Positions 497 through 50,345 of a DNA stretch of 64,000 nt are shown here, in pieces. The notes beneath the pieces were generated by a model. The model saw only the letters and a program-made list of their open reading frames with translations. It made no database searches and was not told the DNA's origin. How positions within the stretch are numbered: position 1 is the stretch's first letter; each line of letters starts with the position of its first letter. The position numbers were made by a program, and so were the translations under genes. The stretch spans positions 101 through 64,100 of the forward strand of contig WGMQ01000030.1 of the NCBI GenBank assembly GCA_016125005.1. The letters are read 5' to 3'. The stretch is from a bacterium (GTDB lineage: Bacteria > Sumerlaeota > Sumerlaeia > SLMS01).

Positions 497-2062
497 ATGT
501 CCCAGCGTTCTGCCCTGCTTTCCGTTAGCGACAAAACCGGTCTCGTGGAGATCGCCCAGGCCCTCGCCAACGCTGGGGTCCGTCTCATCTCCACTGGCGG
601 AACGGCCGCGGCGCTGCGCAAGGCAGGCCTCACCGTTCTGGACATCTCCGAGGTCACCGGCTTCCCCGAGGTCATGGACGGGCGCGTGAAGACCCTCCAC
701 CCTGCCGTCCACGGCGGCCTGCTCGCCCGCCGCGATGTCCCCGAGCACATGCAGGTCCTCACCGACCACGGCTTCTCCACCATCGACTTCGTCGTCGTGA
801 ACCTCTACCCCTTCGTGAAGACCGCCCAGGACACCTCCAAGTCCCTTGAGGAAGTCATCGAGCAGATCGACATCGGCGGTCCCTCGATGCTCCGCTCCGC
901 GTCGAAGAATTACGAGTCGGTGACCGTCGTGACCGACCCGGCCGACTATCCGCGTGTAATCGCCCAGCTCGCCGAGTCCGGCGCCACCACCAAGGCCTTC
1001 CGCGCCGAGCTGGCCGCCAAGGTCTTCCAGCAGACCTCCGCCTACGACGCCGCCATCGCCAGCTACCTGTCTGCCAAGGCCCTCGAAGGGGCCGAGGAGC
1101 GAGGCAACTGGCCCTCCGTCTTCACGGTCTCCATGCCCCTCGCCCAGACGATGCGCTATGGCGAAAACCCGCACCAGGCCGCGGCGTTCTATCGCGACCC
1201 CGCCTGCTCGGAGACGAGCGTTGCCGGAGCACGCCAGCTCCACGGCAAGGAGCTGAGCTACAACAACATCCTCGACGCGGAAGGCGCGCTGGAGATGGTG
1301 CGCGATTTCACCGACCTCGCCCCCGCTGCCGCCGTCATCGTCAAGCATAGCAACCCCTGCGGCATCGCCCTCGGCAAGTCAGTTTTCGAGGCCTACGAGC
1401 GCGCCCGCGAAACTGATCCCGACTCGGCCTTCGGCGGCATCGTGGCGCTTTCCACTGAGGTCGACGAGGAAGCAGCAAAGGCCATCGGCGCCACCTTCAA
1501 CGAGATCGTCATCGCCCCCTCTTTCAGCGAAGGCGCCCTCGCCGAGCTGACCAAGAAGAAGAACCTGCGCCTCCTTGCCACCGGTCCCTTCACGCCGAAG
1601 AAGAACACGCTGATTGTTCGCGGTGTCGTGGGCGGCGCCGTGGTGACGGAGCGTGACCTCGGGATGATCACCGCCGCGGAGCTCAAGCCCGTGACGGCGC
1701 TTGTGCCGGGTGCCGACGACTTGGCCGCGCTGCTCTTCGCCTGGCGCTGCGTCAAGTGGGTGAAGTCCAACGCCATCGTCTATACCAGCGCCACGGCGAC
1801 GCTGGGCATCGGCGCGGGCCAGATGTCCCGCATCGACTCGGCCAACATCGGCGCCATGAAGAGCCGCAAGCCGCTCGCGGGAGCCTTCATGGCCAGCGAC
1901 GCCTTCTTCCCCTTCCGCGACTGCGTGGACATCGCCGCGAAGCACGGCATCAAGGCCATCATCCAGCCCGGCGGTTCCGTCCGGGACGAGGAGTCCATTG
2001 CCGCCGCCAACGAGAAGGGAATCGCAATGGTCTTCACCGGTGTGCGCCACTTCCGCCACTGA
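497..2062 (+). CDS. purH: bifunctional AICAR transformylase / IMP cyclohydrolase
   Basis: Frame of the 583-aa ORF. From MSQRSALLSVSDKTGLVEIAQALANAGVRLISTGGTAAAL it reads as the MGS-like cyclohydrolase domain followed by the AICARFT domain (KHSNPCG, IQPGGSVRD, FTGVRHFRH C-terminus). Start moved to ATG 497; the 62 upstream codons look non-coding. Confidence 0.95.
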   Translation: MSQRSALLSVSDKTGLVEIAQALANAGVRLISTGGTAAALRKAGLTVLDISEVTGFPEVMDGRVKTLHPAVHGGLLARRDVPEHMQVLTDHGFSTIDFVVVNLYPFVKTAQDTSKSLEEVIEQIDIGGPSMLRSASKNYESVTVVTDPADYPRVIAQLAESGATTKAFRAELAAKVFQQTSAYDAAIASYLSAKALEGAEERGNWPSVFTVSMPLAQTMRYGENPHQAAAFYRDPACSETSVAGARQLHGKELSYNNILDAEGALEMVRDFTDLAPAAAVIVKHSNPCGIALGKSVFEAYERARETDPDSAFGGIVALSTEVDEEAAKAIGATFNEIVIAPSFSEGALAELTKKKNLRLLATGPFTPKKNTLIVRGVVGGAVVTERDLGMITAAELKPVTALVPGADDLAALLFAWRCVKWVKSNAIVYTSATATLGIGAGQMSRIDSANIGAMKSRKPLAGAFMASDAFFPFRDCVDIAAKHGIKAIIQPGGSVRDEESIAAANEKGIAMVFTGVRHFRH

Positions 2063-2141
2063 GCCCGCACGCGGTGCGGCTTGACGTGGGGCAAGCAGTT
2101 GCCCTGTATTCCCCGCCTTGCGCGGGAGGACGCGCGTGCCG

Positions 2142-2801
2142 ATGATTGAGACAATCCCCGTCTTTCCGCTCCCGGACACAGTGCTGTTCCCGCGGACTCA
2201 TATCCGACTTCATCTCTTCGAGCCGCGCTACGTGGCCCTGATGGATCGAGTCATGGCCGGGGATGAGCACATGGGCCTGGCTCATCTGAGACCCGGCTTC
2301 GAGTCGGACTACTTTGGCGCCCCGCCGATTTATAAGACGCTGACGTCTGCCCGGGTGCTGCTGGCAGACAAGCTGCCCGATGGGCGGTGGAATGTGCTCT
2401 TGGAAGGCATCCAGCGCGTCAAGCTGGTGGCCGAGTACAAGTCCGAGCCCTACCGCATCATGAAGGTCCGTCCGCTAAGCGACGAGATCCCGCCCGAGCA
2501 TCATGGCGAGTCCGTGCGCCTCATGGAGAGTGCCGCCCGAAAAGTCGAGTCCATTGCGGCCAACTTCGAGGATGGGGAGCGGCGCCTCACCAATCTGGTC
2601 AACCTGCACCAGCACCCGAGTATTGTGGCAGACGTGATTGCCGCTTTGACGGTGGATGATCCCTACACCCGTCAGTCGTTGCTTGAGGAGACAAATGCAC
2701 ATCGGCGCCTCAAGCTGTTGCACGTGCATCTTGATGAGATTCTTACCCAACTGCGCCAGCAAGGCGTGGAAATCAACCTACCGCATGGCGAGGCCGAATG
2801 A
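2142..2801 (+). CDS. Lon N-terminal (LON substrate-binding) domain protein, no AAA or protease part
   Basis: IPVFPLPDTVLFPRTHIRLHLFEPRYVALMDRV is the typical start of the Lon N-domain. ATG at 2142 lies inside a TTG-initiated ORF. The stop overlaps the next start (ATGA at 2798-2801). Confidence 0.75.
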   Translation: MIETIPVFPLPDTVLFPRTHIRLHLFEPRYVALMDRVMAGDEHMGLAHLRPGFESDYFGAPPIYKTLTSARVLLADKLPDGRWNVLLEGIQRVKLVAEYKSEPYRIMKVRPLSDEIPPEHHGESVRLMESAARKVESIAANFEDGERRLTNLVNLHQHPSIVADVIAALTVDDPYTRQSLLEETNAHRRLKLLHVHLDEILTQLRQQGVEINLPHGEAE

Positions 2802-7027: not shown

Positions 7028-7963
7028 ATGGCCCCCTCCTCTCCCGAAAAGGAAATGAGCCTCTTCGATCACCTCGAGGAGCTACGTGGTCGCATCATCA
7101 CATCCCTGATGGCGTTCTCGGTGTGTGTGGTGATCGGCTACTTTCTGGCCCCGTGGCCGCTGGATTGGCTCAGCGAACCCATCGAGCGGGCCCACGCCGA
7201 CCTGGTGCTGCGCCAGCAGAAGCAGACGCTCATCATCGATGTCGCCACGGATGGTACCATGCGGCTGAGGGACCAGACCGCCCTTGATCGCATCGACACC
7301 CACACGGCCTTCGAGTTCCACCGTCCCGGCACCGACAAGGCGCCGGTGCGCTGGGCGCCGGGTGTCACCCCGTCCCTCTTCTACATGCACCCGATGGACC
7401 CCTTCATGATTCGCGTGAAGGCGGCCATGATCATCGGGTTGATCCTCTCATTGCCAGTAATCCTTTACCAGCTTTGGATGTTCATCAACCCGGGGCTCCA
7501 TGCCCATGAGAAACGCTTTGCGCTCCCCGTGATCGTCACGGGAACTGTCCTGTTTCCGGTGGGTGCGGCGTTCGCTTTCTTCATGATGGAGGTGACGCTC
7601 GATTTCTTTGCGAGCTTCGTGATGGGCGGGGCTGGCATGATGAATGATGCGAGCACCTATTTGGGCTTCACCCTCGCAATGATGCTTGCCTTCGGCTTGG
7701 TTTTTGAACTTCCTCTTGGCTTGGTCATTGCCACGCGCATGGGACTGGTTTCGGTGGATTGGCTTGCCGGTCGCCGCCGTATCATCTTCGTGGTGATCCT
7801 GGTGGTGGCGGCCGTGGCAACGCCCAGCGGAGATCCGTTTACCATGCTGGCGATGGGCCTTCCGCTTTACCTCTTGTTCGAGGTTGCCATGATCGTCAGC
7901 CGAGTCCTGGAGCGCGAAGACCGCGAGAGAGAAGCAAAGCTGACGGCGGGACCAGATGCGTAA
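7028..7963 (+). CDS. tatC: twin-arginine translocase subunit TatC
   Basis: MSLFDHLEELRGRIITSLMAF is a TatC-type N-terminus. It has multiple TM segments and lies directly downstream of tatA. An extra soluble loop follows TM1. The start could instead be ATG 7055. Confidence 0.85.
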   Translation: MAPSSPEKEMSLFDHLEELRGRIITSLMAFSVCVVIGYFLAPWPLDWLSEPIERAHADLVLRQQKQTLIIDVATDGTMRLRDQTALDRIDTHTAFEFHRPGTDKAPVRWAPGVTPSLFYMHPMDPFMIRVKAAMIIGLILSLPVILYQLWMFINPGLHAHEKRFALPVIVTGTVLFPVGAAFAFFMMEVTLDFFASFVMGGAGMMNDASTYLGFTLAMMLAFGLVFELPLGLVIATRMGLVSVDWLAGRRRIIFVVILVVAAVATPSGDPFTMLAMGLPLYLLFEVAMIVSRVLEREDREREAKLTAGPDA

Positions 7964-7986
7964 ACGATGAGGTGAATTCAGGACCC

Positions 7987-8955
7987 ATGGCAGGACGCGC
8001 CCCCCAAAACACCTTTCTGGTGCTCGACCCTTCGGCCGGGGAGTTTGGGGCTTTCTACGAGGCGCTCGCCAAGTCAGGGACCGTTATCCAGCTCGGCTCG
8101 ATCGAAGAAGCCATGGCCCTTCGCGAAGCCGTCGACGCACCGGTGCTGCTGCTCGACACTGGCTTCGCCAAGGAACTCCTCCCGAGCGAGGTCAGCACCT
8201 TGGTCGACCAACGTGGCCAGCTTCCCATCGGGCTGGTTACCTGCCAACAAACCGATGACTACCTCACCGAGCTCCGTCGCTGGGGGATCCTTCAGGTCGC
8301 CGTCAAGAACGAGCCCCTGATCCCCGAGGAAGCTTGCCATTTCATCGATTGCCTCCGCGACCCGTCCTCCGGTTTCGGCCTCCACGCGCATCTCTACCAC
8401 ACCATGGAGATGTACAACGTCTCTGTCTCCACAATGAAAGAGAAGAACGAGGCGATCGAGAGCGTCATCAACCATTTCGCAACCTCGGGGTTCGAGGTCC
8501 ACGAGCTCTACGACGTCCGGCTGATCCTTGAGGAAGCGCTGAACAACGCCCTCTTCCACGCCTTCCGCACACCAACCGGCGAGGAGAAATACAGCGTCTC
8601 AACCCTGGTGCAGCTCGACCCCAAGGAAAAGGTCCGCATCGAGTACGGCAACAACGCCCGCATGGCCGGATTCTCCGTCACTGACAGCGCAGGCTCGCTC
8701 AAGGTCCACACCATCCTGGACAAGCTGGAACGGCAGTTGAACAAGGAGGGCCTCTTCGATTCGAGCGGCCGCGGACTTTACCTGTCCCGCATGCTTACCA
8801 CCTCTTTCATCATTAATATCGAGGAAGGAAAGCGCACCCAGGTGCTTGCCCTCTTCGACAAACGCCGACATACCGAGCGCCCCAAACCGTTCATTCTCAA
8901 CTTTATCGGTCGCGACTCATTTTCCGAGTGGCGTCTGGACCCCGACTTCGATTGA
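7987..8955 (+). CDS. receiver-like domain fused to RsbW/SpoIIAB-type anti-sigma serine kinase (HATPase) domain
   Basis: Start moved to ATG 7987 (MAGRAPQNTFLVLDP). The N-terminal alpha/beta domain has LLLDTG. The C-terminal part LILEEALNNALFHAF ... GFSVTDSAGSL ... GRGLYLSRML matches the N, G1 and G2 boxes of GHKL anti-sigma kinases. Confidence 0.6.
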   Translation: MAGRAPQNTFLVLDPSAGEFGAFYEALAKSGTVIQLGSIEEAMALREAVDAPVLLLDTGFAKELLPSEVSTLVDQRGQLPIGLVTCQQTDDYLTELRRWGILQVAVKNEPLIPEEACHFIDCLRDPSSGFGLHAHLYHTMEMYNVSVSTMKEKNEAIESVINHFATSGFEVHELYDVRLILEEALNNALFHAFRTPTGEEKYSVSTLVQLDPKEKVRIEYGNNARMAGFSVTDSAGSLKVHTILDKLERQLNKEGLFDSSGRGLYLSRMLTTSFIINIEEGKRTQVLALFDKRRHTERPKPFILNFIGRDSFSEWRLDPDFD

Positions 8956-44052: not shown

Positions 44053-44877
44053 TCAGGAAAACAGGTCATCGGACTCGGGAAGGGAAAGTGGCTGCCCGGC
44101 CATCTCCGCAAAGACCATCGCATCGAGGATCGCGTTTCCATCGGGGTGATTGTTGAAGAAGGCGAGAGCCGTGGTCGCATTCTCGGCCGCATCCCGAATC
44201 ACTGGTACCCACGGCCTCAGTTCCCCCTGTGCGTAGCGATAGCGATAGCGGTCGCTTCCCGACGGGCTATCCCTGCCGTACCAAGTCTCGCCGTTGCGGC
44301 CGTGGAAACGGAAGTAGGCCAGCGGGCCGGTCTGTCTATACCGCGAGGACTGGGAAAGACCGCGCAGTGCTGGCTGGTCGATGGCCACGCGGGAGACGGC
44401 AAGGTCGCGCAGGAAGCCATCGGCCTCGTCCGTATCCCACGATGAATGGCGCAGCTCCACGGCGAGTGGAATGCCCGCGAGGCATCCGAAGATCTGCTGC
44501 ATCTTCTGCCGATCGGAGAGCGTGTTTCGCAGCGCATTCGGGAACTGGAGGAGAACCGCCATCAGGACTCCGGCCTCGCGGAACGGCGCCAGATACTCGA
44601 GAAACGGGTGCACCGTAGCGGAATCGGTCAGGCCGCGATGGGTCATGTCGCCCGGCGCCTTGATGGAGAACGCAAGCCGCCCTCCCGCATCGCGCACCTT
44701 GCGCCGCGCGGACTCCCGCTTCGGCGTGCCGTAGTAGGTGGCGTTGATCTCCAGCGCTCGGAAGACACCGGCGTAGTAGTCGAGCCGATGCGCCGTCGTG
44801 ACGTGTGGCGGATAGAACACGCCGCGCCAGTCGTCATATGCGTAGCCTGACGTACCGATGAGGAGCGGACCTGGCAT
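44053..44877 (-). CDS. DUF72 (UPF0759, YecE-like) protein
   Basis: Start moved to ATG 44877. MPGPLLIGTSGYAYDDWRGVFYP and LDYYAGVFRALEINATYY are present. The ATG shares its A with the polB stop (TGATG). Confidence 0.8.
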   Translation of the reverse strand: MPGPLLIGTSGYAYDDWRGVFYPPHVTTAHRLDYYAGVFRALEINATYYGTPKRESARRKVRDAGGRLAFSIKAPGDMTHRGLTDSATVHPFLEYLAPFREAGVLMAVLLQFPNALRNTLSDRQKMQQIFGCLAGIPLAVELRHSSWDTDEADGFLRDLAVSRVAIDQPALRGLSQSSRYRQTGPLAYFRFHGRNGETWYGRDSPSGSDRYRYRYAQGELRPWVPVIRDAAENATTALAFFNNHPDGNAILDAMVFAEMAGQPLSLPESDDLFS

Positions 44878-47216
44878 CAGGCAAGGCTCCCGAACAGGTC
44901 GGGCTGTATAGACGTGGTGCACACGGACCTGGCGCTCTTCTTCCGTTCCGGTGGTGCCCACGGCGGACGGACCTTCTTCTCGTCCAACTCAATGCCGCCG
45001 GGCCACAGCAGCGTATTCATGGCGCGGCGCAGCAACCGAATGTTCGCCACGGGATCGGCGGTGGTTTCGTGATCGATGAGTGCCTTGAGTCGCACGCGGC
45101 GGGAACGATCCTGATCGTCGGATGACGTGAGCACATAGGAGAGCGACTCGCCCGCATGGAGGTTCATTCCCGCAGCCACCGACTGGCGCGCGGCAAGCGA
45201 CTGGGCTCCGTTGCCGGTGTAGTCCTCGGGATCCTGCGAGAGGGACTGCCTGATGACGAGGTCGTCGAGCGGTACCTCATGGCGCCAGAGCGCGCCTTCC
45301 ATCTCGGCGATACGATCAAGCAACGTGGGCACCATCGCCCGGTAACCCGCTGCATCAGGGGGCTTGGCCAACTCGCGCAGCAACTCAAGCTGGGCGTTCT
45401 TCACATAGAGCGGCAGGTCGTGGCGACGGCACTCGATGCCGCGATACTTCACCGAGCCATCGCGAAATGCCCCGAAATAGCGCGTCGGAACGGGCATCTC
45501 GGGGTTCTGGCGCGAAGGGAGAAACGCTAGCCACTTGTATATACCCTCCAGCGCGATGGGCAGGCCGGTCACCTTCTGGATCTCCTCGCATAGCACCGGG
45601 ACTTCCGCGTCCTGAAACCCCGGCTTCACAATCCACACACAGTCGACATTCGCGTGGATCATGCGCCAACCACGTTCCTCGCAGACCTCGCGGGCCTGCA
45701 TCAGGATCTCGCGCGAATAGGCCGACACCGCCTCGTGGGCCTCGATACGACCGAAGCGGGCGTTGCGATAGCCGAGGTAACCGAAGCAACAAACCAGCAT
45801 CCACTTGAGCGCATCCTGTCGCGCATCCCAGCGCGCGTAGGCCACCGCGTCGCCAGCCTCCTTCGCCAGCTTGCGCAGGCGCTTGAACTCGACCCGCTTG
45901 GCGATGATCGGCGTGAGGGAACGGGACACAAGACCCGCGCGTTTCTCGCAGATTGTATAGTCGATCTGCGGCACCGTTCGGTTGCTGCAACAGGGGCAAT
46001 TCACCGTCTCCGGCGAGACGTTGAAGCGGGACATGATGCTCGGGTACATGGCGACGAAATCCAGCTCGACGACGTTCTCATGGAAGCCTGTTTCCGGCGC
46101 ATAGACAATACCGCCCCGGTCCGCCTTCAGCAGTTGACGCGCGCTCTTCCACGCCTCGGGCTGCGTCTTCTTCCACGGAACCAGAAAGCCCTCGCGCCAG
46201 GCGTGATCGAGCTGGATCGAGGAAATGCCCGTGCCGATGCTGCGCCGCGCGATACGCTGGATGGGGATGCGCGAGAGACGGGCAACCTCGAAGAGGCCAT
46301 CCATGCCATCGTGCGAGAGCGCGAAGGAGTTCTTGCGATCCAGATGCCAGCGCCCGCGCAGCGCATGTTCCGGCGCCTGGTACAGGATCTTGCCGTAGGA
46401 AAAGTACGAACGCCCCTCCGTCCTGGCCTCGCGCGGCGGCGGCTCGTCGCGATCCAGCCGGATCGGAAAACGCATCCGCTGTGCGAGTGTATAGACAAGC
46501 GGGAACAGGAACGAATCGCCACTGTCCGTCAGCAACACATCCGGGTCCAGATCGTCGAGCGCCCGCTGAAACCCCGCCAGCAGCTCATACGGATCCTCCC
46601 AGGTCAGCACGCGCCCCTCGCACTCCATCGTCAGCGAACGAAGCTCTGTGCGCTTCTCATGTAATGTCCCCTCGCCACGCAACTCCGCCACACGCAACGG
46701 CGGCGTGGCGTACTGCGTCAGCCAACGATCGTCACCTTCCTCCCGCGCCAGCGACAGCAACCGCCCGCCCTCATGCTCCACGCGACAACGCATCAGCGGA
46801 TAGACATCGCGCTCGAAACCGTACACCTGCTCCGCCAGCAAGTCCGCGTTGTACCATGAGAGTAGCGGAAACTTGTCCGCATGACGATCCAGCGCACGGC
46901 GCCACGTTTCGATGCGCAGGAGCCGGAACGCGAACACACGACGGGGCTCGCCCGTCCAGAAGTCGCGGCGCTCCATCCACCCCACCGGCGCCGCATCGCG
47001 CGCCTTCTCCATCACGCGAGCACAGCCCGCCACGTCCTCCTCCGGACCATCGACAAACACCAGCGGCTCGAACGGCTCCACCAACCGCAGGCGCTCGCCA
47101 TCGTCGGTAATGAACCAGAGCACCACCGCATTGCCGACGGCGTGGTAATCGAAGAGCCAACCGGTCGCGTTCACGGCGCGCAAAATCCAGTGGAAATACG
47201 ACGCGAAGCATGGCAT
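44877..47216 (-). CDS. polB: family-B DNA polymerase, Pol II-like, with degenerate exonuclease and altered polymerase motifs
   Basis: Start moved to ATG 47216, giving 779 aa. Motif A is VVELDFVAMYPSIM, motif B is ALKWMLVCCFGYLGY and motif C is MIHANVDCVWI. The Exo I/II regions read PPLRVAELRGEGT and DPDVLLTDSGDSFLFPLVYTLAQR. Confidence 0.85.
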   Translation of the reverse strand: MPCFASYFHWILRAVNATGWLFDYHAVGNAVVLWFITDDGERLRLVEPFEPLVFVDGPEEDVAGCARVMEKARDAAPVGWMERRDFWTGEPRRVFAFRLLRIETWRRALDRHADKFPLLSWYNADLLAEQVYGFERDVYPLMRCRVEHEGGRLLSLAREEGDDRWLTQYATPPLRVAELRGEGTLHEKRTELRSLTMECEGRVLTWEDPYELLAGFQRALDDLDPDVLLTDSGDSFLFPLVYTLAQRMRFPIRLDRDEPPPREARTEGRSYFSYGKILYQAPEHALRGRWHLDRKNSFALSHDGMDGLFEVARLSRIPIQRIARRSIGTGISSIQLDHAWREGFLVPWKKTQPEAWKSARQLLKADRGGIVYAPETGFHENVVELDFVAMYPSIMSRFNVSPETVNCPCCSNRTVPQIDYTICEKRAGLVSRSLTPIIAKRVEFKRLRKLAKEAGDAVAYARWDARQDALKWMLVCCFGYLGYRNARFGRIEAHEAVSAYSREILMQAREVCEERGWRMIHANVDCVWIVKPGFQDAEVPVLCEEIQKVTGLPIALEGIYKWLAFLPSRQNPEMPVPTRYFGAFRDGSVKYRGIECRRHDLPLYVKNAQLELLRELAKPPDAAGYRAMVPTLLDRIAEMEGALWRHEVPLDDLVIRQSLSQDPEDYTGNGAQSLAARQSVAAGMNLHAGESLSYVLTSSDDQDRSRRVRLKALIDHETTADPVANIRLLRRAMNTLLWPGGIELDEKKVRPPWAPPERKKSARSVCTTSIQPDLFGSLA

Positions 47217-47249: not shown

Positions 47250-47477
47250 ATGACCACTCCGCTTCTGGACAAAGCCTTCGCCAAGGCCAGCGCCCTCCCC
47301 GCCGACCAACAAGACGCGATTGCCGAACTCGTCCTGGGCGAACTGGCTTCGGAGGAGCGTTGGGAGCGCCAGTTCGAGAAATCACAGGATACCCTTGAGG
47401 CACTGGCAGACGCAGCCCTCGCGGAAGATGCACACGGCAGGACACGCCCGTGTGGTTCCGGATCCGCTAGGAACTGA
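47250..47477 (+). CDS. small antitoxin-like protein (orphan, no toxin partner)
   Basis: ATG 47250 has AAGGAG 8 nt upstream. MTTPLLDKAFAKASALPADQQDAIAELVLGELASEERWERQFEKSQDTLEALADAALAE closely follows a small-protein family I remember from cyanobacterial addiction-module loci. The last ~12 aa diverge. Confidence 0.5.
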   Translation: MTTPLLDKAFAKASALPADQQDAIAELVLGELASEERWERQFEKSQDTLEALADAALAEDAHGRTRPCGSGSARN

Positions 47478-47493: not shown

Positions 47494-47760
47494 TCACGGC
47501 GCCCGTTCCTCCCGCAACGATTCGACCTCTGCCGAAAGCCGCTCCAGTTCCATCTCCTGCTCCAGCAGGATCGCCATGACCAAGGCATCAAACGGGATCG
47601 GACGTGCCGCGCAGGTCGCCTCTGCCGTGTGCCTGCGGGCTCGCACGAACAGACGGTCAAACGCCGGACGCTGCTCCGCCCTCAGGCCCCGCCGGAACTC
47701 CTTCCACGAATCGATCTCCTCCTGAAGCCAGGTATTGAAGGTAGGAAGCGTCCGCCCCAT
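47494..47760 (-). CDS. hypothetical 88-aa helical protein
   Basis: ATG 47760 has GAGAGG 7 nt upstream. The sequence is MGRTLPTFNTWLQEEIDSWKEFRRGLRAEQRPAFDRLFVRARRH ... EQEMELERLSAEVESLREE. Third-codon-position G+C is 28/35 in the part that overlaps the upstream gene. Confidence 0.5.
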   Translation of the reverse strand: MGRTLPTFNTWLQEEIDSWKEFRRGLRAEQRPAFDRLFVRARRHTAEATCAARPIPFDALVMAILLEQEMELERLSAEVESLREERAP

Positions 47761-48352
47761 CGTTGCACCTCTCGATCTGAAAATCCCAGTCATCGCCCTG
47801 GGCACGCGTCCGCACCCGCACATCTCCGAACTCCAGCATCGGTCGCCACCACGCCTGGTCCCGCGGCACCGATTCATGCGTCACCAACAACGACGCCCCG
47901 TGGCGACGCGGCGCTTCCAGGTCCGCCAACACACCCCCCAGCACCCGCGCCCGCTCCGCCGCGCGCAGCGACTCCTCCAGGAACAGGTGATCCAGCCCGA
48001 GCACCCCGATGGCCGGCGGGGCGCCCCCCTTCAGGTTCAGGAGCGGCGGCACCATCTCCCGCGTCACCGCCGCCAACTGATGGATCGTGAAGCACCGCGT
48101 GACAAAGACCCGATCCAGCACATCCTCCCGCAAGCCTCGCCGCCGAGCCTCCCGCGCGAAAACATACGGATCGAACCCGTTGGCCCCATCCACGATGTAA
48201 AGCCTCCGATCCTCCGGCAGGAACACCGGCGCCAACCGACCCAACACCATCGCCGTGGCCCGACGCGGCGCCTCCAGCACCAGCGCCTGCCCCCTCCGCC
48301 GAACGGCGGAGACAGGACGCATGACAGATGGAACAAATGGCTCGGTCGACAT
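47657..48352 (-). CDS. RecA-fold protein without P-loop (ImuA/SulA-like pseudo-ATPase candidate)
   Basis: Start set at ATG 48352. The strand-helix pattern runs LYIVDGANGFDPY, VFVTRCFTIHQL, PAIGVLGLDHLF (Walker-B-like) and ASLLVTHESV. There is no GxxxxGK[ST]. The last 34 codons overlap the next gene and have G+C at the third position in only 17/34. Confidence 0.45.
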   Translation of the reverse strand: MSTEPFVPSVMRPVSAVRRRGQALVLEAPRRATAMVLGRLAPVFLPEDRRLYIVDGANGFDPYVFAREARRRGLREDVLDRVFVTRCFTIHQLAAVTREMVPPLLNLKGGAPPAIGVLGLDHLFLEESLRAAERARVLGGVLADLEAPRRHGASLLVTHESVPRDQAWWRPMLEFGDVRVRTRAQGDDWDFQIERCNDGADASYLQYLASGGDRFVEGVPAGPEGGAASGV

Positions 48353-48358
48353 GGCGAA

Positions 48359-48388
48359 ATAAAAGCGAAACACGTAAGACTCTGTCAA
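48359..48388 (-). promoter_or_regulatory. sigma70-like promoter placed for a leaderless transcript
   Basis: The minus strand reads TTGACA (48388-48383), an 18-nt spacer, TTTTAT (48364-48359), 6 nt, then ATG 48352. There is no Shine-Dalgarno sequence before that ATG. Confidence 0.35.
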
Positions 48389-48896
48389 GGGCATCCTCAG
48401 GGGCGGCGATGCCGGGGGGCCGGGGGCGCATTTTTGACGGTGTTACCGTCTGAGCCTCTCCTCGGTGCCGGGCACAGTCCCTGTGATGGTGCATGGATGC
48501 TTCGATTCTCCTTCCGCGGTCCCGGTCCGGAAGGCGGGAGTAGTCCCGGGAAGGGTCGGACAGGCGGGGGACCGAGGGCCTCCGACGCGGCATCCTGTGG
48601 GACCCACTACCGGGGTCCGAGCCCCACCCGACTGATGTCCCCACCATGAATGGATGGGGCTACAATTGTTAGGGTCCCTGCCGGGACCGCGGCCGGCGAG
48701 GACCAAGCCGACTTCGATGGCGGGAACAAGGCTGAGATGCTCCCCTTTCGCAGCCTCCCCCCATCGCCCTTGACGGCCCCGGATCGCTCCGGCATTCATT
48801 GTGCGTCGCTTGGATGCCTTTGCAGCCCCGGGTGCAAATCAGCCAGGCGCGGGCCTCGCCCCCGCCCAACCAACACCAAGCAGAGCACCAGCCACG

Positions 48897-50345
48897 ATGC
48901 ATGTCGCCTTCATCACAGCCTACGATCCGAAGAGCCCGTATCAGGTCAGCCTGCCGCCGCTCGGGATCGGGTATCTGTCTGCCTATGTGAAGCAGCAGTG
49001 TTGGTACGTCACCACCAGCTTCCACCACACGGTGGAGGAGTTGATCGACGCCAAGCCCGACATCATTGCCGTTTCCTCCACCACCGAAAACTTCGAGCAC
49101 GCAACCTGGCTCGCCCGGGCAGCCAAGGAGGCGCTGGGGAAGCCGGTCATTGGCGGCGGCATGCACATCACCAGCCTCCCGCACACGCTCCCGGATGTGT
49201 ACGACCTCGGCGTTGTCGGCGAGGGCGAGAAGACCTTCGTCGAGATCATCCAGCTTTACAACGAGGTCAAGAACCCCGGCACCAGCGACTTCGCCAAGCT
49301 GAAGGGCGTGGCCTATCACGAGAACGGCCAGGTCGCCATGACCCCGGCGCAGGAGCTGATCAAGGAACTGGACACGATGCCCTATCCGGATCGTGACCTG
49401 ATCGACCACGGCTGGAAGGTACCCTCCTGGGAAACCGTCCATCTGGTGTCGAGCCGCGGCTGTCCCTACAAGTGCTCCTTCTGCTCCAGCTCGCTCCACT
49501 GGAAGCGCTTCCGCTTCTTCAGCCCCGAGTATGTGGCCAAGGAGATCGAGTACCTCCGCGAGCGCTACAACCCCGAGATCCTCTATTTCTTCGACGACCT
49601 TTTCGTAGGGCACATCGGCCGCTGGCGCGAGGTGGTGAAGCTCTTCCGCGAGCGCCGCATCCACGAGGGCGTCCGCTTCCGCGCCTATGCCCGCGTGGAC
49701 CTGATCACCGAGCAGATGGCCGAGGAATTCGCCGAGCTCAATTTCCAGTACATCGACTTCGGTCTCGAGTCCAACTCCGAGCCGATCCTCAAGTTCCTCA
49801 CCAAGACCCGCGTCACGCCGGACGTGAACCAGCGCGCGCTCGACATCATGGCGAAGAACAACCTCTCCGTCGGCGCCAACTTCATCATCGGCTCTCCGCC
49901 CGAGACGCTGGAGATGATGATGGAGTCCTATGACTTTGCCGACCGGAACCGCAACGTGATCGACCGATGCTCGGTCGGGCCGTTGCAGCCGCTCCCCGGC
50001 ACCGGCGTGTGGAACATCGCCAAGATGCGCGGCCTGGTGAACGACAATTACGAGTGGGCCCGCCTAGGCGTCACCTACGACACCTTCGACTGGGATCGCT
50101 TCCCCTTCATGGGCGAGAATATCTCCCGCGAGGACTTCATGAGCGGCTGGGCGAAGTTCAACACCCTGGCCCGCGAGATCAACTATGTGGGGCAGATGAA
50201 GAACATGTCCCACCGCAACCACAAGAAGGAGCAGCGCATCCAGGAACTGGAGCGCGAGCTGCAGTCGCTCAAGGGCTCTCGTCTCGTGCAACTCGCCAAC
50301 AAGTTCCGTACTTGGAAGCAGTCGCTGACCGGTTCCGCGCACTAA
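48897..50345 (+). CDS. B12-binding-domain radical SAM protein
   Basis: Start moved to ATG 48897. The N-terminal cobalamin-binding-like Rossmann part is MHVAFITAYD..LPPLGIGYLSAY..DIIAVSS. SSRGCPYKCSFCSS is the CxxxCxxC cluster. The C-terminus has a coiled coil. Confidence 0.85.
   Translation: MHVAFITAYDPKSPYQVSLPPLGIGYLSAYVKQQCWYVTTSFHHTVEELIDAKPDIIAVSSTTENFEHATWLARAAKEALGKPVIGGGMHITSLPHTLPDVYDLGVVGEGEKTFVEIIQLYNEVKNPGTSDFAKLKGVAYHENGQVAMTPAQELIKELDTMPYPDRDLIDHGWKVPSWETVHLVSSRGCPYKCSFCSSSLHWKRFRFFSPEYVAKEIEYLRERYNPEILYFFDDLFVGHIGRWREVVKLFRERRIHEGVRFRAYARVDLITEQMAEEFAELNFQYIDFGLESNSEPILKFLTKTRVTPDVNQRALDIMAKNNLSVGANFIIGSPPETLEMMMESYDFADRNRNVIDRCSVGPLQPLPGTGVWNIAKMRGLVNDNYEWARLGVTYDTFDWDRFPFMGENISREDFMSGWAKFNTLAREINYVGQMKNMSHRNHKKEQRIQELERELQSLKGSRLVQLANKFRTWKQSLTGSAH

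Follow-up and report, generated by a model that had tools for sequence, protein, structure and literature searches.

A bacterial PolB2 mutasome operon with an overlapping fourth gene, DUF72, in Candidatus Sumerlaeota

Bacterial PolB2 has been described as the polymerase of a "mutasome" encoded by the operon iRadA-PPB2-PolB2, which was transferred from archaea (Timinskas, Timinskas and Venclovas 2025, PMC11791011), and a 2026 survey counts PolB2 as a known bacterial polymerase group (PMC12926913). The group, termed G2, is defined by an Exo I motif that is not conserved, a missing Exo III, a single Asp in motif C and a D(K/R) motif (Kazlauskas 2020, PMC7544198), the last of which was modelled in contact with the N-terminal arm of PPB2 (PMC11791011). 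The archaeal PolB2 Dpo2 is an active, exonuclease-free enzyme that extends mismatched and lesion-opposed termini, and its motif C reads IID (PMC8764526). In the present study, we analyzed a stretch of 64,000 nucleotides (nt), hereafter the window, from a Candidatus Sumerlaeota genome (GCA_016125005.1, contig WGMQ01000030.1, positions 101 to 64,100), the minus strand of which carries these three genes followed by a gene for a DUF72 (YecE-like) protein. We consider it likely that these genes form a bacterial PolB2 mutasome operon, in which DUF72 is a translationally overlapped fourth gene, that its PolB2 would be an active, proofreading-free damage-tolerance polymerase, and that DUF72 would act in the same pathway.

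Judged by its sequence, the polymerase of the window (44877–47216, minus strand; 779 amino acids (aa) plus the stop codon) is an ordinary member of the described bacterial PolB2 family, group G2. It matches PF00136 (E 3e-28) and aligns with the Thermococcus KOD polymerase at a probability of 100 over 654 columns (hhalign). Among the more than 4,000 protein clusters that the homologue search with PolB2 brought up, those from Candidatus Sumerlaeota genomes assembled from metagenomes were the closest. Counted from ATG, the open reading frame (ORF) spans 44880–47216 on the minus strand, and in its longest form it opens at TTG 47312; since close homologues begin with MNVTGW, the alternative GTG 47174, 14 codons downstream, may be the true start.

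The initial annotation had taken this protein for a Pol II-like enzyme. However, its best PDB relatives in phmmer are archaeal PolB (E 2e-42), as opposed to E 1.7e-4 for E. coli Pol II (1Q8I), and the archaeal-type PRK05761 subfamily model of NCBIfam scores E 4e-112, as opposed to 8e-16 for the Pol II models. The similar overall length and domain order of the two proteins would agree with a degenerate Pol II of the E. coli type that has an active site of its own kind and a DUF72 partner not known before. Beyond the distant match, this explanation is opposed by active-site substitutions that are family-wide, by iRadA and PPB2 lying upstream and by a DUF72 link that is already published; the Pol II orthologue was rejected on the phmmer and NCBIfam scores together with the family-wide substitutions, and we regard this explanation as very improbable.

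The motifs of PolB2 were compared with those of the KOD polymerase by phmmer against PDB chains, by hhalign of a 21-sequence family alignment and by a MAFFT alignment of 201 sequences; the KOD reference sequence agrees with the portions of it shown in the phmmer output. The stretch PPLRVAELRGEG (residues 172–183; 46668–46703, minus strand) aligns with the KOD Exo I motif FDIET and contains no Asp, none standing opposite KOD D141 in hhalign, and the column is variable within the family in MAFFT. The Exo II remnant TDSGDSFLF (residues 230–238; 46503–46529, minus strand) was located by phmmer and hhalign, with KOD NGDNFD corresponding to SGDSFL, N210 to S232 and the catalytic D215 to L237; the D215 column holds Leu, Ile or Val in 195 of the 201 family sequences (MAFFT). 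As for Exo III, KOD Y311 is not conserved, and D315 faces a gap in hhalign and a His in MAFFT. The loss of the exonuclease catalytic residues, which had been read from a hand alignment, is therefore borne out by the tool alignments, in which no intact DxE / NxxxFD / DTD residues were found. The earlier wording that Exo II has "no Asn or Asp" is right for the catalytic positions and wrong for the quoted string, which does hold Asp (D231, D234). Because these catalytic residues are gone, proofreading should be absent from the window PolB2.

The polymerase motifs were followed in the same alignments. Motif A (LDFVAMYPS; 46038–46064, minus strand) retains its Asp, D386, present in 201/201 sequences, and the steric-gate Tyr, present in 194/201. 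Motif B is found as the variant KWMLVCCFG (45780–45806, minus strand), with the Lys retained (198/201 in the family), Asn replaced by Val (197/201) and Tyr by Phe (201/201), and archaeal PolB2 sequences in a published supplement carry a K-W-x-L-V-x-C-F-G motif B (PMC11791011). This shared motif B and the PRK05761-type match would agree, indirectly, with a position of the window PolB2 nested within archaeal B2. In the motif C variant HANVDC (45639–45656, minus strand), the first Asp is changed to Asn and the second is retained. Throughout the family, the first position is Asp in 0/201 sequences (I 117, N 46, L 25, Y 11, V 2) and the second Asp is present in 201/201, the NVD form of the window being a minority (46/201). 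The D(K/R) motif, specific to PolB2/G2, is represented by D255-R256 in the loop after Exo II (46449–46454, minus strand); R256 occurs in 201/201 sequences, and position 255 is Asp in 152 and Asn in 46. Alignment to KOD upheld the non-canonical motifs B and C of the initial annotation, which had counted them as altered; they are not peculiar to this gene and form a fixed PolB2/G2 signature over the 201 sequences (PMC7544198, PMC8764526, PMC11791011). As identical substitutions are fixed throughout the family, they are, on the evidence of the alignments, not a chance pattern.

The replacement of the first Asp of motif C and of the Asn and Tyr of motif B would also be in line with a pseudo-polymerase that has lost catalysis and acts solely as a scaffold or in DNA binding, and the family was first annotated as inactivated (Rogozin 2008, as cited in PMC7544198). 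This explanation was rejected and appears improbable to us, since the two metal-ligand Asp and the motif B Lys are kept in 198–201 of the 201 sequences and Dpo2, with its IID motif C, is robustly active (PMC8764526). That the motif A Asp, the motif B Lys and the second motif C Asp are so conserved speaks for selection on catalysis, and the pattern in the alignment is that expected of a working active site rather than of a decaying one. Because archaeal PolB2 (Dpo2) is active, an active polymerase is expected for the window PolB2 by homology.

One further conserved feature of the polymerase is a cluster of cysteines, CxCC...C, in CPCCSNRTVPQIDYTIC (C407, C409, C410 and C423; 45948–45998, minus strand), each of which is found in 187–197 of the 201 sequences. 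KOD has just the last two of the four, which form a disulfide there. The Cys cluster is a possible metal-binding site, as far as its sequence can suggest. At the same position, Halobacterial PolB2 sequences in the supplement of the 2025 study read CDCH...C (PMC11791011).

The initial annotation overlooked the defining partner genes upstream, namely iRadA (47657–48394, minus strand; 245 aa), the first gene of the operon, and PPB2 (partner of PolB2; 47494–47760, minus strand; 88 aa). For the comparison of loci, a species-representative genome collection was scanned, in which at least 583 stretches matched PolB2, and 80 loci were kept for the census; the scan places the PolB2 operon on chromosomes of at least eight phyla. 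In the window, iRadA, PPB2 and PolB2 follow one another in this order on the minus strand, and the same order is found in most of the 80 loci wherever upstream DNA exists. The product of iRadA is an inactivated RadA/Rad51 paralogue, identified by its profile match to RadA and its position upstream of PPB2. Its homologues stand directly upstream of PPB2-PolB2 in 63/80 loci, and the family profile matches Pyrococcus furiosus RadA (E 3.5e-11). The position of the P-loop reads LEAPRRATA (48251–48277), no GK[ST] Walker A was found anywhere in the 245 aa, and the protein is too short for the RadA N-terminal domain.

PPB2, which belongs to Pfam DUF8156 according to a precomputed hit (PF26485), is present in 68/80 loci. 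The aligned homologues, 39 taken from the loci and 40 from databases, carry MGRT at the N-terminus without exception, and it is by this motif that PPB2 is defined (PMC11791011). The AlphaFold2 (AF2) model, built from database homologues, consists of three helices (8–25, 31–48 and 57–86). As a monomer, this model gave no significant match in Foldseek, so that a sigma-factor-like fold similarity was not reproduced, and a profile search of the PDB gave no match either. Against the local Pfam and NCBIfam libraries, no curated family was found for iRadA, PPB2 or a 75-aa ORF that lies between PPB2 and PolB2.

Several side observations concern these two partner genes. The public gene call at this place is a wrong-frame ORF of 257 aa (47874–48647, minus strand), which has no homologues and stands in place of iRadA, and the exact iRadA sequence is absent from a collection of 15 billion proteins; iRadA is probably unannotated in the Sumerlaeota genome of the window. 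The iRadA frame continues past the ATG of PPB2 by 92–116 nt (104 nt in the window, 47657–47760), always with a one-base offset, in 11 loci from several phyla (the window, L002, L004, L023, L040, L042, L053, L064, L067, L074 and L081). In-frame iRadA-PPB2 fusions occur in other genomes (PMC11791011), and the overlap might reflect a frameshifted fusion product or a mere constraint of the N-terminal codons of PPB2. The PolB2 ORF of L007 (6765–10328) is longer by about 400 aa at its N-terminus, and neither iRadA nor PPB2 was found there as a separate gene; that of L071 (7494–10340) encloses a PPB2-like segment, which is read in another frame. These two are possibly fusions of mutasome components or assembly frameshifts. 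Neither iRadA nor PPB2 was detected in about 8 kb of upstream DNA in L003, L009, L055 and L062 (PolB2 at about 7920–8001), where the partners would sit elsewhere in the genome or be too diverged for the profiles used.

Downstream of PolB2, the DUF72 gene (44053–44877, minus strand; 274 aa plus the stop codon) begins within the stop codon of the polymerase. The TGATG at 44875–44879, noted in the initial annotation, was confirmed in the junction cTGATGcc, where TGA (44879–44877) and ATG (44877–44875) have one base in common. A stop/start overlap is also present in L002 (the same as in the window), in L004 (ATGA) and in L088, L089 and L090 (4 nt each), and overlap is thus kept in six genomes, the PolB2 proteins of which are 59–83% identical where measured. 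Because the overlaps recur in these loci, the four-gene operon is stable across genomes at this range of divergence. Concerning the earlier claim of co-expression in fixed stoichiometry, the one-base overlap shows co-transcription, in support of co-expression, and makes translational coupling possible, whereas it does not show fixed stoichiometry.

Across the census, DUF72 was found within 8 kb of PolB2 in 13/80 loci, in at least three arrangements and in different phyla, and the adjacency is not unique to the genome of the window. DUF72 lies directly downstream on the same strand, as in the window, in L002, L004 and L018 (with two copies in L018). In six loci of Bacteroidota or Kryptoniota, it lies upstream in the same orientation, and three loci have it on the other strand; in L075, lexA-DUF72-iRadA-PPB2-polB2 form a tight operon. 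The linkage of DUF72 to PolB2 is real and recurrent, yet facultative. The initial annotation knew of no described pairing of the two genes. However, DUF72 stands eighth in a published table of polB2 neighbours, in 119 of about 1,820 operons, and is called enriched "to some degree" (Table S1, PMC11791011); the pairing was therefore already reported in 2025 and is not new. What may be new is DUF72 as a fixed fourth gene with overlapping codons in a Sumerlaeota subclade.

The DUF72 assignment is based on a full-length match to PF01904 (E 1.2e-48; 166.5 bits against a gathering cutoff of 25.3) and on similarity to TM1631 (PDB 1VPQ; E 6e-39). The AF2 model (pLDDT, the predicted local distance difference test score, 95) is a triosephosphate isomerase (TIM) barrel with a TM-score of 0.85 to 1VPQ. 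According to the alignment and the model, the invariant residues E43, K73, H80, Q111, E141, R143, D167, R190, H192, N242 and N243 lie at the C-termini of the strands, a placement that resembles that of TIM-barrel active sites. DUF72 has been stated to be closely related to UV-damage endonuclease (UVDE; PMC11791011), and a DNA-repair role for it has been predicted computationally only (PMC3828134, PMC4939058). Beyond the DUF72 structures, Foldseek returned generic TIM barrels at TM-scores of about 0.5, including xylose-isomerase-like sugar epimerases; since only DUF72 structures scored strongly, the link to nucleases is unproven.

A possible link of both proteins to the replication clamp was seen in their C-termini. 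PolB2 ends in ...QPDLFGSLA, in which QPDLF (residues 771–775; 44892–44906, minus strand) is a motif of the beta-clamp-binding type, and related Sumerlaeota PolB2 end in QPDLF, QLDLF, QTDLF or QGDLF. In 81 loci, namely the 80 genome loci and the window, a clamp-type motif was found on PolB2 in eight, on iRadA in nine and on both in none, and the iRadA of the window has no such motif. These counts reproduce the published pattern, in which the clamp motif is on PolB2 or iRadA, rarely on both (PMC11791011).

In DUF72, the candidate beta-clamp-binding motif is the C-terminal SDDLF (44059–44073, minus strand). For the comparison of tails, the 37 closest DUF72 homologues (44–100% identity) were set against 83 more distant ones, and D[LM]F occurs within the last 12 residues of 37/37 of the former and 2/83 of the latter, in tails such as SGDLFS, YRDLFS, QGDLFG and QTDLFG. 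The tail has low confidence in the AF2 model (mean pLDDT 63 for the last block) and is presumably flexible. The canonical clamp-binding consensus is QL[SD]LF. Because DLF resembles both this consensus and the QxDLF of PolB2 from the same clade, the conserved tail suggests that the DUF72 clade of the window is recruited to the beta clamp, which would fit a DNA-repair role. The DLF tail is a trait of this DUF72 clade that is not confined to polB2-linked copies and is found in unrelated contexts too; as a conserved motif of DUF72, it may be new.

Several points weigh against our reading of the locus and should be considered together. Concerning DUF72, three close relatives do not have it adjoining PolB2, and in one of them, GCA_020444065.1, a DLF-tailed DUF72 is on another contig. 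The SDDLF of the window is a weak match to the consensus, being without its Gln and Leu. The 50 best structures that Foldseek matched to the DUF72 model included neither UVDE nor endonuclease IV, and the literature searched contained no experimental function assignment and no biochemistry for DUF72/YecE. The same literature contained no biochemistry of a bacterial PolB2. Concerning regulation, lexA adjoins the operon in 36/80 loci, a count in favour of our reading, but a profile search found no lexA in the 64-kb window, nor was any found near a Sumerlaeota locus. In the window and four Sumerlaeota loci, the 300 nt that precede iRadA showed no recognisable SOS box, nor did the gap between PPB2 and PolB2, and a scan for sigma-70 promoters and terminators performed no better than on shuffled sequence and found no promoter. 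Finally, the 75-aa ORF on the opposite strand separates PPB2 from PolB2.

Some of the points on DUF72 would agree with an incidental adjacency, in which a housekeeping enzyme of unrelated (e.g., metabolic) function shares the PolB2 transcript in some lineages. Besides the close relatives without the adjacency, such an explanation draws on the low frequency of the neighbourhood (13/80 loci here and 119 of about 1,820 operons in PMC11791011), on DLF-tailed DUF72 in unrelated contexts and on a Foldseek result without nuclease-specific similarity. However, the linkage recurs across phyla and positions, that is, downstream, upstream and inside a lexA-headed operon, where chance would place DUF72 within 8 kb in fewer than one of 80 loci by a rough estimate that takes a genome to be about 4 Mb with one or two DUF72 genes. 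The codon overlap is kept in six genomes despite the divergence of their PolB2, and the C-terminal motif resembles that of PolB2. We therefore consider an incidental DUF72 unlikely, and a place for DUF72 in the PolB2 pathway is the reading that we prefer.

The 75-aa ORF (47250–47477, plus strand), which begins MTTPLLDKAFAKASALPADQQDAIAELVLGEL, is antisense to the operon. None of the 80 genome loci has this ORF, and the corresponding place in L088 holds a homologue of 73 aa (1960–2181, minus strand). It has no Pfam or NCBIfam match; in our view, it presumably resembles a small antitoxin-type protein, and no partner gene is present. The ORF may affect transcription of the operon. A small antitoxin-like ORF adjoining the gene would be in keeping with a polymerase that belongs to a mobile element (a pipolin, casposon or phage) and replicates that element. 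This candidate was rejected and seems highly improbable to us: there are no integrase, terminal-protein or capsid genes, the flanking genes are housekeeping genes, the guanine-cytosine (GC) content is level throughout the locus, and the same chromosomal operon is present in at least eight phyla.

Regarding the DNA upstream of iRadA, no shared palindrome was found in the window and four Sumerlaeota loci. An AT-rich element, ATTTTCG...TTT...GC.TTTT, is common to L004, L006 and L008 about 30–100 nt upstream of iRadA, within GC-rich DNA, and is absent from the window and L002; from its sequence, it may serve as a regulator site in this clade, which has no adjacent lexA. Divergent from iRadA is a gene for a B12-binding radical SAM protein (48801–50345, plus strand). 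A radical SAM gene also lies about 3 kb upstream of iRadA in L084, and Radical_SAM is among the published polB2 neighbours, in 65 operons (PMC11791011).

Taken as a PolB2 mutasome with DUF72 in its pathway, the locus can be described by the following mechanism. From its homology to archaeal Dpo2, PolB2 would be a proofreading-free polymerase in damage tolerance that mainly extends mismatched or lesion-opposed primer ends. In other family-B enzymes, the Asn and Tyr of motif B make polar contacts that check the nascent base pair. Their change to Val and Phe would remove such contacts, which would fit a tolerance of distorted termini. Published homology-based models predict a complex of PolB2 with a PPB2 trimer and a single iRadA, the RadA paralogue without ATPase activity, and the complex would be tethered to the beta clamp via the C-terminal QPDLF of PolB2 itself. 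DUF72 would be co-translated from the PolB2 message and would most likely process damaged DNA or blocked ends in the PolB2 pathway, in the clade of the window perhaps also tethered to the clamp by its C-terminal DLF. As a more specific and tentative possibility, which we put forward with considerable doubt, DUF72 in the Sumerlaeota-centred clade could be a clamp-tethered fourth component of the PolB2 machinery, a nuclease of TIM-barrel fold that cuts at lesions, or trims back 3' ends that are blocked or mismatched, on behalf of a polymerase that has lost its own proofreader. Three genomic lines would speak for a part of DUF72 in the processing of DNA damage at the replication clamp, namely the independent and repeated linkage to polB2, the lexA-headed operon and the clade-wide DLF. 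If true, the clamp-tethered nuclease would provide the first function for the large orphan family DUF72/YecE.

Compared with known systems, E. coli DNA polymerase II (PolB, group G1) is likewise a bacterial accessory polymerase with a family-B fold and a C-terminal beta-clamp motif, whereas its DEDDy exonuclease is intact, its motifs B and C are canonical, it consists of a single subunit, and it is a remote sequence match. E. coli Pol V (UmuD'2C-RecA) and the ImuA-ImuB-DnaE2 mutasomes resemble the present system in combining a polymerase that tolerates errors with small accessory subunits and a member of the RecA family, tethered to the clamp and usually under SOS control; their polymerases belong to the unrelated families Y and C, and the resemblance is a functional analogy, not homology.

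For DUF72, the structures of TM1631 and EF0366 (1VPQ, 1VPY and 1ZTV) represent the same family and fold, although in TM1631 the aligned chain ends before the C-terminal tail of the window DUF72 begins. UVDE and endonuclease IV are also TIM barrels, and the invariant Glu, His, Asp, Lys and Arg of DUF72 are at strand C-termini; as matches to the DUF72 model, however, these enzymes fall outside the best 50 of Foldseek.

The only relative characterised by experiment is Dpo2 of Sulfolobus islandicus (PMC7390963, PMC8764526), likewise a family-B polymerase that lacks an exonuclease, carries a replaced first Asp in motif C and has the same partner genes. It differs in being archaeal and based on PCNA, in its regulation by Orc1/Cdc6 rather than LexA and in its IID motif C. 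As for PolB2 itself, our analysis rediscovers a mutasome that was described computationally from 2014 to 2025 and characterised biochemically only in archaea; the value of the locus is that of a clean and compact four-gene example with overlapping genes in an uncultured phylum, and of a lead toward DUF72.

The closest system is the bacterial PolB2 mutasome (PMC7544198, PMC11791011, PMC12926913). The window shares with it the gene order, the MGRT arm of PPB2, an iRadA without Walker A, the dead exonuclease, the D(K/R) motif, the single Asp of motif C, a clamp motif on PolB2 or iRadA only and the occasional DUF72 neighbours. It is set apart by having no adjacent lexA, by the opposite-strand ORF that splits PPB2 from PolB2, by its NVD motif C and by DUF72 as a fixed fourth gene in its subclade.

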